From a virus: DNA of 39,413 nt. The stretch lies in the IMG/VR virus record IMGVR_UViG_3300002461_000236, positions 1 through 39,413 of that record; one strand, 5' to 3'. The notes beneath the pieces are model-generated. The model had not been told where the DNA came from. It searched no databases and was given only the letters and a program-made list of their open reading frames with translations. The translations under genes and the position numbers were made by a program. Each line of letters starts with the position of its first letter. The stretch's first letter is position 1. Shown here piece by piece: positions 21,440 to 39,413 of this stretch.

Positions 21440-22396
21440 TCATGCCGCCCGCCTCAGCTGGTGCCACGGGCCAGGGCCAGCAGCAGCAAACACACGCTCG
21501 CGATACGCGCGGTTGTGAGCGCGCAGTTCGTCATCGGTCCACGAATTGCCTAGGCCGCTTGTGGCGTACAACACCCCAACGCGCTCACCCATGGTCTTCA
21601 CGCCCTCAAGCGATTGCCACCAGTCGGCAGCAAGGGCCGGCAACGGCAGCTGATCGCACCAACGCTCGCCATGCAGCCAGCTGCTGGCCTTTGGCACGTA
21701 CCGCCCGCCTTCTTCGGCCCACCGCTCTGTCGCAGCCCATGCCTGCACCGATGCGATGACCCTTGCCTGCAACGCAGCGTCGGGCTTGATCCGCGCCCAT
21801 TGGCGACGTGCGGCCTTCTCCTCGGTCTTTCGCGGGTACACAGCCCAGAAGGCATCAAACCCGTCATCCCCACCAGCGCATGGCTTTGCGGGCTTGAGGT
21901 GCTTCTGCACATGCTCGCTCGCGCCCCCCGCCTTTGCGGGGGGTTGGGGGGGTATTTCTGACGGTTCTTGACGGTTCTTGGGTATTAGTGTCCGCGTGGC
22001 GGACTGGTTTAGTCCGCGTGGCGGACTGGTTGGGTCCGCGTGGCGGACGGGTTCGCGTGGCGTACCGGTTCGCGTGGCGGACTGGTAAGGGTGGTTATCC
22101 ACAGCGTTTGCTGCGGCTGCTGATTCATTGGCGTCTGCCACGAACTTTGCAGGCTCCACCCAGTACGTGGTCTTGCGACCGTTGGAGCGACTGGCACGCA
22201 CGGCACCCCTCGCTTCCAGCCACGCAATGGCTTCAATGACAGCGGTGCGACCGAAGCACGTACGCTCACACAGGCGCTCGATGGTGGGCCAGCAATAGCC
22301 CTCATCGTTCGCCATGTCGGCAAGGGACACCAGCACGGCTTTGGCTGGCGGCCGCATCTGCAGGGGCCAGCACAGGGACATGATGCGAGTGCTCAT
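21440..22396 (-). CDS. Replication initiator-like protein (N-terminal winged-helix, lambda O analogue)
   Basis: MSLCWPLQMRPPAKAVLVSLADMANDEGYCWPTIERLCERTCFGRTAVIEAIAWLEARGAV is a typical replication-protein HTH/wHTH domain. Iterons lie inside the gene. I chose ATG 22396 (ATGA overlap); GTG 22414 is the alternative. Confidence 0.7.
   Translation of the reverse strand: MSTRIMSLCWPLQMRPPAKAVLVSLADMANDEGYCWPTIERLCERTCFGRTAVIEAIAWLEARGAVRASRSNGRKTTYWVEPAKFVADANESAAAANAVDNHPYQSATRTGTPREPVRHADPTSPPRGLNQSATRTLIPKNRQEPSEIPPQPPAKAGGASEHVQKHLKPAKPCAGGDDGFDAFWAVYPRKTEEKAARRQWARIKPDAALQARVIASVQAWAATERWAEEGGRYVPKASSWLHGERWCDQLPLPALAADWWQSLEGVKTMGERVGVLYATSGLGNSWTDDELRAHNRAYRERVFAAAGPGPWHQLRRAA
21990..22087. 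repeat. Origin iterons (5 copies) inside the initiator gene
   Basis: GTCCGCGTGGCGGACTGGTT occurs at 21990 and 22012, with a variant at 22034 and shorter CGCGTGGCG(G/T)AC(T/C)GGT copies at 22054 and 22071. Each contains the dyad TCCGC-N3-GCGGA. Spacing is 22/22/17/17 bp. Confidence 0.8.
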
Positions 22397-22914
22397 GACA
22401 ACAGGCCAGCCCACACACCCAGGCCAGACACGCGCCCGGTGCCCACGCGCAGCGAGCGCACGTAAGACGGGCTGATGCCTGTGCGGCGGGCAGCTTCGGC
22501 CGATGTAAGGGATGTGTCGCGGGCCAGGTCGATCAGCTCAGGGGCGTGGCGTGCACGGCTGCGGCTTGCTGCCGCACGGTTGGCCAGGGCAATGGGGTGG
22601 CTGTACGCGCCGCGCTGGCTGGCGCGGCGCTGGGCCTCACGGCGGGTCACCTCGCAAAGGCACGCCAGGCACAGGCGGTTGCCACAGGCAGGCACCACGT
22701 ACATGCCAGCGCGCGGTGCGCGGCCGTGCTGAGCCTGGAACACCAGGCGGGGCAGCGATGCACCCACCCATGGCCGGATGGATGCCTGCGGCACGCCGCT
22801 GGTCTGCTTCACGCTGCCCTGCCAGATCAGGCAGCCATCGACGTCGATGCAGCCAGCCAGCACGCGGTCGATGATGCGGGCCGCGTCGTCAATGGATAGA
22901 ACCAGCTCAGACAC
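22393..22914 (-). CDS. Putative DNA-binding protein (Cys-rich N-domain plus C-terminal HTH)
   Basis: GTG 22914 overlaps the upstream stop. DGCLIWQGS ... CGNRLCLACLC form Cys clusters. The C-terminal LTSAEAARRTGISPSYVRSLRVG is a helix-turn-helix. Confidence 0.6.
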   Translation of the reverse strand: MSELVLSIDDAARIIDRVLAGCIDVDGCLIWQGSVKQTSGVPQASIRPWVGASLPRLVFQAQHGRAPRAGMYVVPACGNRLCLACLCEVTRREAQRRASQRGAYSHPIALANRAAASRSRARHAPELIDLARDTSLTSAEAARRTGISPSYVRSLRVGTGRVSGLGVWAGLLS

Positions 22915-29133: not shown

Positions 29134-29492
29134 CCCCCAACCGCCTGCACAAACCCACGCCACTGCCCCGCGCGGCAGAGACACAGGCCGCCTGGACCAC
29201 CGGCTGGTGGCAGGGCAGCACCACCGGCTTCGTGCTGGGCCTGGCTGCCGCCGTACTGCTGGGGTGGCACCACCGAGCGCCGCACCCGCGTGCGCACCCA
29301 GGGCCCCGCCTGCACCGCCGACCTGTGCCAGCAAGCGTGCGAGCTGCCCGGCGCCGATGCCGACCCGCTGCGCGAAGAGCCATCTACCGCCTTCGAGCTG
29401 GTGACCATGTGGCTGGTCATCGCCGCGCTCGCCTGCGGGGTCGTTCTGGCAATCAGAGCTTGCGCAAGCGCCTGATTCGCTTGCCTCTGTAG
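29130..29492 (+). CDS. Hypothetical membrane protein; the frame is credible only to about 29275
   Basis: The N-terminal ~50 aa (TM GFVLGLAAAVLLGW) have high GC3. The remainder is Arg-rich with low GC3, while the +1 frame becomes coding-like. Confidence 0.4.
   Translation: MTPNRLHKPTPLPRAAETQAAWTTGWWQGSTTGFVLGLAAAVLLGWHHRAPHPRAHPGPRLHRRPVPASVRAARRRCRPAARRAIYRLRAGDHVAGHRRARLRGRSGNQSLRKRLIRLPL
29290..29475 (+). CDS. Hypothetical protein with C-terminal TM (or the frameshifted continuation of the 29130 gene)
   Basis: GC3 is very high in this frame. The product ...CTADLCQQACELPGADADPLREEPSTAFELVTMWLVIAALACGVVLAIRA looks genuine. There is a GTG start but no visible SD. Confidence 0.5.
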   Translation: MRTQGPACTADLCQQACELPGADADPLREEPSTAFELVTMWLVIAALACGVVLAIRACASA

Positions 29493-31572: not shown

Positions 31573-32555
31573 GCGAGAACACCAAAATCGAGTGGTGCGA
31601 CCACACCTTCAACCCGTGGGAGGGTTGCCAGAAGGTCGGCCCCGGCTGCGACCACTGCTATGCCGAAACGCGCAACGCGCGCTTTGCTGGTGGCACCGCC
31701 ATCAATTGGGGGCCAGGCGCACCACGCCGCCGCACCAGCGCCGCCAACTGGCAACTGCCAAAGCGATGGAATGCCCAGGCCGACGCCTTCATGGCCCAAC
31801 ATGGCCGACGCCAGCGCGTTTTTTGCGCATCCCTGGCTGATGTGTTCGACAACGCGGTACCGGTGCAGTGGCGGCGCGATTTGTTCGATCTAATCGAGGC
31901 GACGCCAAACCTTGACTGGCTTCTGCTGACAAAGCGCATCGGAAACGCTAGCAGCCTTTACGCCGAGGCCTACCTTGATTCCGCGCGCCCCTGGCCTGAA
32001 AACGTGTGGCTGGGCGCCACCATAGTGAACCAGACCGAGGCCGACCGCGACATACCAAGGCTCCTGGCCGTGCCTGCGCGCGTGCGGTTCCTGAGCATGG
32101 AGCCGCTGCTGGGGCCGGTGCAACTCGACACCATCTACAACACTGACTTTGGCGAATGCCAGCCATACCTACACCCGCTCATCGGCCGGGTGAGCGATGG
32201 GCACGGCGACAGCTGCAGCGCCCCGTCAATTGACTGGGTGATCGTCGGCGGCGAGAGCGGCCCCGGCGCGCGCCCCATGCACCCCGACTGGGCCCGCAGC
32301 CTGCGCGACCACTGCGAGGCGGCTGGTGTGGCGTTTCTGTTCAAGCAATGGGGCGAGTGGGTAGACGCTGACAGCGGCCCAAAGGACGACGCAGCATACG
32401 AAGGCAAACCCGATTGCTGGGCACACATCGAAGGCGGGCACCACGATGGCGCCATGGGGGTGGACTTCTTTAACACCTACCCCATGTACCGCGTCGGCAA
32501 GAAAGCCGCAGGCCGCCTACTGGATGGCCGCACTTGGGATGGGCTTCCAGCATGA
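31569..32555 (+). CDS. Phage Gp37/Gp68 family protein (DUF5131, three-Cys motif)
   Basis: IEWCDHTFNPWEGCQKVGPGCDHCYAE at the N-terminus, then VRFLSMEPLLGP, and WVIVGGESGPGARPMHPDWARSLRDHCEAAGVAFLFKQWGEW at the C-terminus. These are hallmark blocks of this family. Confidence 0.85.
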   Translation: MSENTKIEWCDHTFNPWEGCQKVGPGCDHCYAETRNARFAGGTAINWGPGAPRRRTSAANWQLPKRWNAQADAFMAQHGRRQRVFCASLADVFDNAVPVQWRRDLFDLIEATPNLDWLLLTKRIGNASSLYAEAYLDSARPWPENVWLGATIVNQTEADRDIPRLLAVPARVRFLSMEPLLGPVQLDTIYNTDFGECQPYLHPLIGRVSDGHGDSCSAPSIDWVIVGGESGPGARPMHPDWARSLRDHCEAAGVAFLFKQWGEWVDADSGPKDDAAYEGKPDCWAHIEGGHHDGAMGVDFFNTYPMYRVGKKAAGRLLDGRTWDGLPA

Positions 32556-33500: not shown

Positions 33501-33558
33501 CCACGCCATCGACTACCAATCGCCAACCACCAACCACCAACCACGAAGGCAATCAACC

Positions 33559-34194
33559 ATGCACATCGAATCCCTCACCATCAATCTGCTGCAGCCAAAT
33601 GCCCCGCAGACCAGCCAGATCGGCCTGGAGCAAGTTCTGCAAGCACTGCAAAACATTGCGAATGGCGGCATCGCATTGCACACCGCGACCGACTCAGCAG
33701 CGCCAGCGCCAGAGGTAGCCAACCACACACCACCCGCACCCGGCCAACCATGGCCCGGCCAGGGCGGCATCTACATCTGCACCCTGCCCGCCCAGTTTGG
33801 CCTGCCAGCGCGCCACCTGGTGGTGGGCGCCAACGAGGCCGAAGACCTGACCTGGGGCCCATACGGCGAAGAGGCTGAAGGCGCCACCAGCCAGACCGAT
33901 GGCCGCGCCAACACCGCCGCCTTGACCGCCAGCGGCAAAGGCCATCCCGCAGCTGTCTGGGCCAGCCAGTACACCGAAGACGGCCACACCGACTACTACC
34001 TACCCAGCCGCATCGAGCTGCTGATGTGCTACTTGCACGCACCCCAGGTGTTCAAGACATCGGGCTGGTACTGGAGCAGCTCGCAGTACTCGCGCAGCCA
34101 CGCCTGGTGCCAGGCCTTCGAGTACGGCTTCAGCCTCGCCCACTACAGGGGCAGCGAGTTCCGCGCTCGCCCCGTCCGCAGCATTCAACTTTAG
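33559..34194 (+). CDS. DUF1566 (Lcl C-terminal, C-type-lectin-fold) domain protein, paralog 1
   Basis: TDGRANTAAL...GHTDYYLPSRIELLMCY...GWYWSSSQYSRSHAWCQAFEYG...EFRARPVRSIQL matches the DUF1566 pattern (DG..NT, DW.LPS..EL, YWSS, VR.VR). Confidence 0.8.
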   Translation: MHIESLTINLLQPNAPQTSQIGLEQVLQALQNIANGGIALHTATDSAAPAPEVANHTPPAPGQPWPGQGGIYICTLPAQFGLPARHLVVGANEAEDLTWGPYGEEAEGATSQTDGRANTAALTASGKGHPAAVWASQYTEDGHTDYYLPSRIELLMCYLHAPQVFKTSGWYWSSSQYSRSHAWCQAFEYGFSLAHYRGSEFRARPVRSIQL

Positions 34195-34228
34195 CCCCTC
34201 ACCCCTTCGCCACTTTCACCCACCCACC

Positions 34229-34247
34229 ACCGGCGCGCGGCGCCGGT
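34229..34247 (+). promoter_or_regulatory. GC-rich hairpin downstream of DUF1566 paralog 1
   Basis: ACCGGCGC-gcg-GCGCCGGT, followed by ccgacgcaaaTTTTT. The same architecture occurs after paralog 2. Confidence 0.6.
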
Positions 34248-34277
34248 CCGACGCAAATTTTTGAAAGGCAACACCCC

Positions 34278-34778
34278 ATGCGCACCATCACCCTCCCCCT
34301 GTTCGGCGCCCTTCTTGCAACGCAAGGCGGCCACTTTGGCGCAATCCTGCGCGGCGCAGCAGCCGACGGCAGCGAAGACTTCGCCCTGATCGTGGCCGAG
34401 CAGTCGGCCGAGATCGAAGACGCCACCTGGTCCGACGAATACAAGATCATCGATGGCGCGGACAGCAAGACAGACGGCCCAGCCAACACCGCCGCCATGG
34501 CCGCCGCAGGCCTGCAGCTGGCCCAGCGCATCAAGGCCCTGGACCTGGGCGGCCATACCGACTGGTACCTGCCCGCCGCCGCCGAGCTGCGCGCCCTGTC
34601 GGCCACCGTGCCCGAGCTGTTCAACCAGCACGACTACTACTGGAGCAGCTCGCAGTACTCGCGCAGCTACGCCTGGTGCCAGGCCTTCGAGTACGGCGAC
34701 AGCAACGACGGCCTCAAGGACAACGAGTTCCGCGCTCGCCCCGTCCGCAGAGTTCAACTTCACACCTTGAACACTTAA
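34278..34778 (+). CDS. DUF1566 domain protein, paralog 2
   Basis: TDGPANTAAM...GHTDWYLPAAAELRAL...YYWSSSQYSRSYAWCQAFEYG...EFRARPVRRVQL. Confidence 0.8.
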   Translation: MRTITLPLFGALLATQGGHFGAILRGAAADGSEDFALIVAEQSAEIEDATWSDEYKIIDGADSKTDGPANTAAMAAAGLQLAQRIKALDLGGHTDWYLPAAAELRALSATVPELFNQHDYYWSSSQYSRSYAWCQAFEYGDSNDGLKDNEFRARPVRRVQLHTLNT

Positions 34779-34796
34779 ACCCTCCCCAGCAACACC

Positions 34797-34813
34797 ACGG
34801 CGCGTAGCGCCGT
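34797..34813 (+). promoter_or_regulatory. GC-rich hairpin downstream of DUF1566 paralog 2
   Basis: ACGGCGC-gta-GCGCCGT, followed by ccgcgcgaTTTTTT. Confidence 0.6.
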
Positions 34814-34853
34814 CCGCGCGATTTTTTGGCCCACCAGACCCAGCTTTGCACCC

Positions 34854-35231
34854 ATGTCTCTCGCCACCGACCTCGAAATCCACAAACAAGGCACCGCCCT
34901 ACTGGACCTGTGCGCCGACGTGCAGGCCCGCATCCCCCGCGCGTTCCGCGCGTCCATGGGGTACCGCATTTCGGATGAGTGTGTCGAGATACTGGTGCTG
35001 ATCGGCCGCGCCAACGCCGCCCGCCGCCGCACCCTGGCCAGTGCCCTGCAGCGCATCGAGCACTTGCCAGCAGCCGAGGTCTTCAGCGCAGGCAACAGCT
35101 ACCTGGGCCTGGTGCGCCAGGCCAGCCACAGCCACAAGGAGCGGGCGGCAGTGTGCCGCGCGCTGCTCAAGCGCGGGCACGCGGTTGAAGGGATGAATTT
35201 GAGCAAAGCATTCAGGAGGAATGAGGCATGA
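34854..35231 (+). CDS. Four-helix-bundle protein resembling the DGR accessory variability determinant (Avd)
   Basis: ARIPRAFRASMGYRISDECVEILVLIGRANAA parallels Bordetella phage BPP-1 bAvd SIPRKHGVAREMFLKCLLGQVELFIVAGKSN (from memory), and the FPK..R....Q..RA..SI..NIAEG pattern of 23S-IVS four-helix-bundle proteins. Confidence 0.5.
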   Translation: MSLATDLEIHKQGTALLDLCADVQARIPRAFRASMGYRISDECVEILVLIGRANAARRRTLASALQRIEHLPAAEVFSAGNSYLGLVRQASHSHKERAAVCRALLKRGHAVEGMNLSKAFRRNEA

Positions 35232-35620
35232 CCGACACCACCAAAGACCACACCCGCGTCACCCCCCAGGGCCAGGCCATGGGCAAAAACGCCACCCGGC
35301 TGGCTGCCCTGGGCCTGCAGCGCCTGCAAGCCGCAGGTCTTGCAGACGTACAGGCACCCATGCTGCGCACCGAAATGTGCAAAACCTGCGCCTGCCAGCC
35401 CAACACCGTGCCCAACGGCTGCCTGCAAACGCAACTGGACTTTTTGAAGGCTGCGACAGAGGGCCTGCCGTTCCGCTGCCACGCGCCCAAAGACGGCCGC
35501 ATCTGCGCAGGCTGGGCGAGAGTCCGCGCCGAACTGGTGGCCAACCCACTGCCGCCCGAGGCATTGAAGCTGATCGACAAGTGGGACTACACAGCACCGG
35601 ATGAGGAGCAACAGACATGA
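35228..35620 (+). CDS. Hypothetical Cys-rich protein
   Basis: 130 aa with MCKTCACQPNTVPNGC...PFRCHAPKDGRICAGW. ATGA overlap upstream. Confidence 0.65.
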   Translation: MTDTTKDHTRVTPQGQAMGKNATRLAALGLQRLQAAGLADVQAPMLRTEMCKTCACQPNTVPNGCLQTQLDFLKAATEGLPFRCHAPKDGRICAGWARVRAELVANPLPPEALKLIDKWDYTAPDEEQQT

Positions 35621-39312: not shown

Positions 39313-39348
39313 AGCCAACCACTCCCTACGGAACGGTCGGCTGCTTTT
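39313..39348 (+). terminator. Possible terminator spanning the repeat junction
   Basis: AGCCAACC-14 nt-GGTCGGCT (one mismatch) followed by gcTTTTgg. The 3' part is also present at 1..29. Confidence 0.35.
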
Positions 39349-39413
39349 GGCAATCGTCGCAGTCGTGGTGTGCCTCTACCAAAAGAACCCACTTCTGCAT
39401 TTCTGTGCAGCTC
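39320..39413. repeat. Terminal direct repeat, right copy (identical to 1..94)
   Basis: Exact 94-nt match to the start of the window. Confidence 0.95.

Follow-up and report, generated by a model that had tools for sequence, protein, structure and literature searches.

We studied a locus of three consecutive genes (33559..35231, plus strand) in the viral record IMGVR_UViG_3300002461_000236 of IMG/VR, whose whole stretch of 39,413 nt is called the window below, and conclude that it is very probably what a deletion has left of a diversity-generating retroelement (DGR) of the RT-15 RNA family. The ancestral phage would have carried, in this order, target gene 1 with its variable repeat (VR1), target gene 2 with VR2, the gene avd, the RT-15 RNA, the template repeat (TR) and the reverse transcriptase (RT) gene. 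The RT would have copied the TR RNA, misincorporating opposite adenines, and the resulting complementary DNA (cDNA) would have repeatedly overwritten the last ~100 nt of both DUF1566/C-type-lectin-like genes. Such overwriting from the TR would explain why the two paralogues are near-identical in the invariant parts yet scrambled at the template AAC codons. Two CCCGCC sites, at avd codons 56-57 and ~68 codons before the RT stop, would then have recombined illegitimately in a single event that removed 1.8-2.4 kb and left an in-frame 125-aa open reading frame (ORF), avd'::'RT. The phage would now be unable to diversify its targets itself, both VRs being frozen alleles in intact ORFs.

The relatives of the locus carry this reading (L-numbers denote related loci or contigs; L004 is IMG/VR UViG 3300012816_000017 and L037 the prophage of Acidovorax sp. 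ACV01). At least 13 related loci present the order target-target-avd-RT-15 RNA-TR, and the RT is also present where the loci extend far enough. L037 and L040 contain Lcl_C, Lcl_C, bAvd and RVT_1 genes together with a TR. An earlier note, made from the letters of this DNA, had offered a decayed DGR as the first of its three readings, beside RT and TR supplied in trans and an RT-independent exchange of cassettes, and had pointed to related genomes as the place to look for a TR and an RT. Both are present in many genomes, including the cultured Acidovorax prophage, and the decayed-DGR reading is borne out, as the relatives have the same targets followed by intact avd, RT-15, TR and RT, while the window aligns on both sides of the gap, with orthology and synteny on either side against L003, L004, L037 and L040. 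From a functional DGR the window lacks the catalytic RT, a TR in the same genome and an intact Avd; it retains adenine-restricted mismatches (against the TRs of relatives), targets with their VR in a C-terminal DUF1566 domain, and the recipient cis elements.

Gene 3 and the deletion junction

Gene 3 (34854..35231, plus strand) is a chimeric ORF of 125 aa in which avd and RT sequences are joined in frame. Its 5' part (34854..35025, plus strand) consists of codons 1-57 of avd, and its 3' part (35026..35231, plus strand) of the last ~68 codons and the stop of a DGR RT. The profile phrog_3206, 'Avd protein of DGR', matched residues 1-60 only (E 4.8e-8; profile positions 10-69 of 154). Gene 3 gave no Pfam match at all, neither to bAvd PF22296 nor to RVT_1, and no significant match in a PDB sequence search; intact Avd homologues, 119-163 aa long, carry PF22296. 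A blastn search of GenBank phages matched 35089..35180 of the window to the 3' end of the annotated RT gene of Pseudomonas phage Cruim01 (PP179333.1). At the protein level, residues 1-71 of gene 3 are 41% identical to the Cruim01 Avd (E 3e-20) and residues 30-122 are 38% identical to the last ~100 residues of the Cruim01 RT (E 3e-17).

The agreement with L004 is much closer. The avd remnant is identical to the start of the 156-aa L004 Avd at 57/57 aa and 169/171 nt, and the RT remnant agrees with the end of the 385-aa L004 RT at 194/207 nt and at 67/69 positions (68 codons and the stop, ~97%). When the L004 RT was compared with the whole window by tblastn, only its residues 315-385 of 385 matched (35016..35228; 94% identity, E 4e-37). 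With the L004 and Cruim01 RTs as queries, no other match with E below 0.2 was obtained in the complete genome, and no catalytic RT domain was found. The earlier note had taken gene 3 for an Avd-type four-helix-bundle protein and had seen no RT in any frame. The first claim holds for residues 1-57, where the Avd family is indeed matched, in the N-terminal half only, and fails for the rest, which is an RT C-terminus; the second holds for the catalytic domain and not for the last ~68 RT codons, which survive inside gene 3. We also considered a divergent full-length Avd, which the RT-tail match rules out.

The deletion junction lies at 35020..35025 (plus strand), in a 6-nt microhomology, CCCGCC, that occurs in both the avd and the RT 3' region of the intact relatives. 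The window reads ...GCCAACGCCG-CCCGCC-GCCGCACCCTGG... across it. Positions 33529-35031 of the window are collinear with L004 1695-3200 (87% identity) and positions 35017-35248 align to L004 4996-5227 (92% identity), the intervening 1.8 kb being missing from the window. The same breakpoints were obtained against L003, L037 and L040, all alignments breaking at window 35017-35031. Against L040 the missing stretch is ~2.4 kb because of an extra gene between TR and RT in that relative, so that the size of the deletion ranges from 1.8 to 2.4 kb with the relative compared. The deletion took away the second half of avd, the RT-15 RNA, the TR, and the RT from residue 1 to ~316. In the complete genome we found neither a TR nor a third copy of the repeat (up to 3 mismatches; a 26-nt anchor with up to 6 substitutions returned two copies only), and no match to the Rfam RT-15 RNA. 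As a separate observation, a DUF3606 gene lies on the opposite strand between TR and RT in L037 (5819-6019, minus strand) and L040 (5198-5398, minus strand); in L040 it falls in the ~2.4 kb missing from the window.

Independent assemblies confirm the deletion. Contigs of SRR2905840 and SRR2905841 (Logan and ENA assemblies), SRR28154524 and SRR28154525 encode exactly the same 125-aa fusion, and a contig of SRR28154522 (L020) also spans the junction. Exact look-ups of the flanking 130-aa and 121-aa proteins returned no intact sibling at 99% identity or above; every contig reaching the junction carried the deletion. Two proteins, P0002 and P0009, turned out to belong to other lineages from other samples (P-numbers denote proteins returned by a protein search with the 125-aa fusion as query). 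The remnants differ from the relatives almost only at synonymous sites, which suggests that the deletion is recent.

The RT stop overlaps the start codon of the next gene in the window (ATGA, 35228..35231), and this overlap is also found in L004 and L036. Because of it, in-frame survivors of the deletion may have been favoured, through translational coupling of the RT stop to the next gene. The chimera itself would have no DGR function.

Variable repeats, target genes and hairpins

VR1 (34081..34181, plus strand) and VR2 (34650..34750, plus strand) are 101-nt repeats at the 3' ends of genes 1 and 2, and VR1 is now without its cognate TR. As reference template we used the 101-nt TR that is the same in L010 and L040, two independent close relatives, and that contains 26 A in 101 nt. 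VR1 aligned to this TR without gaps and all of its mismatches fell at TR adenines (12/12; hypergeometric P = 8e-9). For VR2, 8/9 mismatches were at TR adenines (P = 6e-5). The two VRs differ from each other at 13 of 101 positions, of which 12 lie inside a 27-nt segment and one is a CAC/TAC difference at 34099/34668; 12 of these 13 differences are at TR-A positions (P = 9e-8), the exception being index 58 of the repeat. Over the variable segment the TR reads AAC AGC AAC GCC AAC AAC AAG GAC AAC, VR1 TTC AGC CTC GCC CAC TAC AGG GGC AGC, and VR2 GAC AGC AAC GAC GGC CTC AAG GAC AAC. The VR codons thus follow the classic AAC-to-NNC design, in which the third positions stay C.

The earlier note had reported no clean signature of adenine mutagenesis. 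This is overturned by the comparison with the relatives' TR; the signature had been missed because one VR was compared with the other VR and not with a TR. Its further suggestion, that variation confined to the VR at adenines be sought in relatives, is answered by a control of seven intact relatives with 2-3 VRs and one TR each, in which VR-TR mismatches numbered 9-15 at A and 0-2 at non-A (one VR was left unscored for a 3-nt indel). At their 3' ends, over 26 nt, VR1 and VR2 both agree base for base with the TRs of L010, L011 and L040.

Target gene 1 (33559..34194, plus strand; 211 aa) and target gene 2 (34278..34778, plus strand; 166 aa) are intact ORFs whose products carry a DUF1566/Lcl_C domain, C-terminal in gene 1. 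Against Pfam Lcl_C/DUF1566 PF07603, gene 2 scored 51.4 bits (E 1.6e-13) and gene 1 scored 30.8 bits, under the 34.9-bit gathering cut-off; both matched phrog_4245 (E 5e-30 for gene 1, 4.7e-28 for gene 2). The PF07603 matches end at residue 207/211 in gene 1 and 157/166 in gene 2, and both overlap the VRs. By this profile match, the VRs are assigned to the C-terminal C-type-lectin-like/DUF1566 domain. A PDB sequence search with gene 2 gave no significant match. With the targets of the Cruim01 DGR, gene 1 shares 41% identity (first target) and gene 2 33% (second target); at the nucleotide level, gene 1 shows 87-89% identity to target 1 of L004 and L040.

The repeat structure described from the letters was recovered in full. 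The two tandem DUF1566 genes are diverged over most of their length (45% protein identity), and their 3' ends share a 60-nt block with 59/60 identity (34069..34128 vs 34638..34697) and a 26-nt block with 26/26 identity (34156..34181 vs 34725..34750), which flank the 27-nt segment with its 12 differences. Exactly 2 copies each of the 26-nt block and of the 30-nt stretch that opens the 60-nt block are present in the window, with 0 expected in shuffles, and a repeat search returned 34069-34207 vs 34638-34776 as the longest direct repeat of the window. Such near-identical blocks in paralogues of 45% identity would be the product of repeated overwriting from one template.

The GC-rich hairpins with T-runs that the same note had placed after each gene fold as described. 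Hairpin 1 (34229..34247, plus strand), 47 nt 3' of VR1, has the sequence ACCGGCGC-gcg-GCGCCGGT with a predicted 8-bp stem and 3-nt loop. Hairpin 2 (34797..34813, plus strand), 46 nt 3' of VR2, reads ACGGCGC-gta-GCGCCGT with a predicted 7-bp stem and 3-nt loop (z = -3.3 for a 90-nt stretch). The T-runs begin 7-13 nt past the stems, for which reason a terminator scan called neither hairpin in the window. The stem ACCGGCGC/GCGCCGGT, or one a base shorter, is found 34-47 nt after nearly every VR in L003, L004, L005, L007, L012, L013 and L037 and is not present after the TRs of those relatives. An element identical to hairpin 2 follows VR2 of L004, VR2 of L012 and one VR of L037. Some VR hairpins of relatives have no T-run, which weakens a reading of the hairpins as pure terminators. 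By analogy, they are candidates for the DGR target-recognition hairpin and/or a terminator stem, and with the GC-rich 3' block and these VR-only hairpins the recipient cis elements would be present in the window.

Variation among RT-less contigs and competing explanations

We compared VR variation among contigs that match the window at 99.7% identity or more. One main VR1 allele is carried by the window itself and by ten contigs, 11 sequences in all, which come from eight runs of two projects; VR2 occurs as two alleles. The shared VR1 allele is consistent with DGR inactivity. The SRR281545xx contigs (L015, L017, L020, L021 and L026) are 99.7-100% identical to the window between ~32490 and 36031 and sharply divergent outside; recombination appears to have spread the DGR-relic module among mosaic phage genomes.

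Several observations weigh against the simple picture of a deleted DGR with frozen repeats. The VRs are imperfectly frozen, as the few variants among the RT-less contigs concentrate in them. L015, which has the same fusion ORF, differs in VR1 by 8 changes, 7 of them at TR-adenine positions, and is otherwise identical to the window over 3.5 kb except for two sites at the module boundary (VR1 thus holds 8/10 differences). L019 differs from the window by one single-nucleotide polymorphism in 12.4 kb, and this is at 34729 in VR2. The change at 34729 is found in L014, L016, L018 and L019, being the sole substitution relative to the window in L014, L018 and L019; the equivalent VR1 position, 34160, is among the L015 changes. 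In L024, VR1 is changed only at 34138. Furthermore, the VR2 mismatch at index 58 is at a non-adenine of the closest TRs (L010/L040); the TRs of L001, L002 and L005-L007 have A there. All TRs seen have T, not an adenine, at the polymorphic index 79, to which 34160 and 34729 correspond. The ancestral TR of the window itself is lost, so that the adenine signature is read from the TRs of relatives 87-93% identical in the flanking DNA. Finally, the evidence for the deletion consists of assemblies, and the same samples may hold a minority intact allele.

At index 79 (window 34160 in VR1, 34729 in VR2) the polymorphism is TTC/TGC, Phe to Cys, and occurs in different samples. A lost TR with A at this index, short-tract conversion from an unseen template, and parallel selection are possible causes. 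For the VR-confined variation as a whole, three explanations remain, namely recombination with unsampled intact siblings, diversification in trans, or strain mixing in the k=31 contigs.

Diversification in trans would mean that, after the deletion, Avd, TR RNA and RT came from a relative that has an intact DGR and either co-infects the cell or resides in it. We regard this as unlikely. It is in keeping with the intact recipient elements, since the 3' 26 nt equal the TR ends (L010, L011, L040) and the window has the hairpins specific to the clade, and with the concentration in the VRs of the differences among near-identical contigs (L014, L015, L016, L018, L019 and L024); moreover, in Bordetella phage BPP-1, a donor plasmid with avd-TR-brt drives homing into phage targets (PMC3240598). 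However, one main VR1 allele over eight runs and two VR2 alleles are unlike an actively diversified VR, and neither an intact sibling at 99% identity or above nor an intact relative co-occurring in the same samples was found. The L015 changes are interleaved with retained non-template bases (indices 63, 70 and 73), a pattern that a single 3'-to-5' homing tract does not predict, and index 79 is not a TR adenine. Recombination of mosaic relatives, which the module boundaries at 32490 and 36031 show to occur, or strain mixing in k=31 contigs would give the same picture.

An assembly artefact, in which collapsed repeats would have hidden an intact avd-TR-RT of the real phage, is highly improbable. 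DGR loci do hold 3-4 near-identical repeats of ~100 nt, and several Logan contigs break in or near VR2. Nevertheless, the junction lies outside the VR/TR repeats, at a 6-nt microhomology far below any assembly k-mer, and it is identical in at least five runs of two projects and from different assemblers (Logan k=31, ENA k127 and the NCBI/JGI contig). Hardly any weight is left to an RT-independent exchange of cassettes, another reading of the earlier note, in which gene conversion would exchange the 27-nt segment between the paralogues or bring it in from silent cassettes: it shares with the locus a general appearance, conserved blocks around a hypervariable segment, but the complete genome has no further copies of the flanking blocks and hence no donor cassettes, the variable positions are the template adenines of intact homologous DGRs with third codon positions staying C, and the avd and RT remnants directly downstream show the source of the variation.

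Related loci, known systems and phage genome

The reading of the locus as a relic of an RT-15-type DGR was set against intact DGRs of this type in Cruim01, the Pseudomonas phage SC_8_H2H8_2017 (MT121966.1), the ACV01 prophage (JACUZT010000009.1) and the IMG/VR UViGs 3300012816_000017 and 3300019776_000520. The window shares with them a tandem of small DUF1566 targets (two, sometimes three) whose 101-nt VRs are homologous, the GC-rich block at the 3' end of the VR and the hairpin after it, homology at the avd N-terminus and at the RT C-terminus, and a place in an early/accessory region near the integrase. The window differs in having the 125-aa avd'::'RT fusion in place of the avd 3' half, RT-15, TR and RT residues 1-~316. 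In Cruim01 the order is two DUF1566 genes, a 118-aa Avd, the RT-15 RNA (188 bits), TR and RT. Some relatives have three targets per TR: in L005 the VRs end at 2236, 2788 and 3343, the last with a 3-nt insertion relative to its own TR, and a further case is L037 (1-582).

RT-15 is listed in Rfam (RF03018) with the type 'sRNA' only. It was located at 2744-2936 in L001, 2741-2932 in L002, 1790-2020 in L003, 3476-3685 in L004, 3783-3970 in L005, 1030-1218 in L006, 2285-2473 in L007 and 540-749 in L010, and also in L011-L013. It directly abuts the TR in L003-L007 and L010-L013; it begins in the avd 3' end and ends 2-3 nt inside the 101-nt TR block in 8/8 loci compared. This placement suggests that RT-15 is the structured 5' portion of the template RNA in these related DGRs. 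No paper came up in a literature text search that combined RT-15 with DGR.

The Bordetella phage BPP-1 DGR (mtd-avd-TR-brt) has the same order of target(VR), avd, TR and RT as the ancestral order of the window, adenine-specific VR/TR mismatches at AAC codons and a GC-rich VR end. In BPP-1, a GC-rich hairpin/cruciform downstream of the VR is described as required for target recognition and homing (PMC5758913, PMC3240598). Hairpins of the BPP-1 type have 4-nt GRNA loops at 4-34 bp, whereas those of the window and its relatives mostly have 3-nt loops and lie 34-47 nt from the VR. The BPP-1 target is a tail-fibre protein, while the window has two small DUF1566 proteins in a non-structural region; in addition, the relatives of the window have a structured RNA (RT-15) 5' of the TR, and the window itself is without RT and TR. 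DUF1566/CLec2 'category d' is described as a recognised class of DGR targets, for example LdtA of Legionella pneumophila (Wu et al. 2018, PMC5758913). As in LdtA, the VR overlaps a DUF1566-type C-terminal domain (in the window, by sequence profile); unlike LdtA, the window proteins are phage-encoded, short (166-211 aa) and have no lipobox visible in the sequence.

The exact 26-nt VR block had no match in IMG/VR, the relatives being found afterwards by protein search. A degenerate 26-nt pattern revealed no host-borne matching TR in the GTDB representative genomes; two single-copy matches there (Tsukamurella and Micromonospora) had no blastn similarity to the locus and were taken as chance.

Besides the fusion of the window, the protein search brought up six more Avd-N::RT-C chimeras (P0003, P0004, P0005, P0006, P0010 and P0049), a chimera of a DNA methyltransferase N-terminus with the RT tail (P0052) and many ORFs with the RT tail only. 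Since the query biases the list towards in-frame fusions, we claim recurrence and not an in-frame excess. The junctions vary, ~32 to ~93 Avd residues being kept and the RT remnant starting between residue ~269 and ~340, and the fusion lineages are ~50% identical; because junctions and lineages differ, the fusions are taken as independent deletions. Three of the fusions were checked in context (loci L032-L036). P0006 occurs in three JGI samples, where two Lcl_C genes precede the fusion and an integrase gene follows it. Immediately before P0003 stand two targets whose ends resemble VRs, and before P0004 a single target, truncated at the end of the contig. Neither a TR nor RT-15 was found at any of the three. 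The avd::RT fusions with different junctions in at least three other lineages suggest that DGR loss by deletion is recurrent in this clade. As a side observation, L039 4001-4429, in the Acidovorax genome GCA_031843925.1, is a 142-aa ORF consisting of the RT C-terminal tail alone, annotated 'MULTISPECIES hypothetical protein [unclassified Acidovorax]'. Its neighbours are a truncated integrase and a pyocin-activator gene, which makes it a DGR fragment within a decayed prophage of cultured strains.

The relic agrees with the textbook and leaves the understanding of DGRs unchanged; literature on RT-less or defective DGRs yielded general discussion of inactive DGRs only. What the window and its relatives provide is a clean before/after pair, with both breakpoints within 6 nt, in which the DGR is lost and the targets are intact. 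The different junctions of the fusions suggest that DGR loss is frequent in the clade, which bears on the theory of keeping or discarding hypermutation (bioRxiv 10.64898/2026.02.18.706561). RT-centred DGR finders miss such loci, and the VR genes are then annotated as ordinary paralogues. The RT-less lineage, present in two projects, is a natural control to separate DGR-driven change from ordinary evolution of target genes, and could serve to test the rewriting of orphan VRs in trans. A broader scenario, which we hold to be doubtful, is that recurrent in-frame avd'::'RT deletions lock in a pair of VR alleles that has proved successful, while the VRs can still be rewritten in trans, so that RT-less phages free-ride on their kin; if this were true, the VR-confined differences in L015, L019 and L024 would be the footprint of such rewriting.

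The window is a complete genome of ~39.3 kb, circularly assembled. It is called complete because a perfect direct repeat of 94 nt stands at its termini (1-94 = 39320-39413) and because an independent contig, L014, wraps around, continuing past the window end into its start; L014 and L019 both cross the window ends. The genes for terminase, portal, a capsid-protease fusion, tape measure, replication initiator and serine integrase identify a temperate siphovirus. The same proteins are recorded under NCBI whole-genome shotgun project LNFM01 and in 'activated carbon metagenome' assemblies. Among cultured relatives, the ACV01 prophage (L037) comes closest to the locus, and from this similarity the host is probably Acidovorax.

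Two observations concern other parts of the genome. At 21990-22094, within the ORF 21440..22414 (minus strand), a lambda-O-like replication initiator gene, there are five tandem copies, each with the palindromic core GTCCGCGTGGCGGAC and spaced by 17-22 nt, which resemble origin iterons. At 29268/29269, L014 and L024 (same project) have a 16-nt insertion, TCAAATGAACCAGCCC, absent from the window; it creates a TGA/ATG gene junction, and the window may hold two fused ORFs or a frameshift there.

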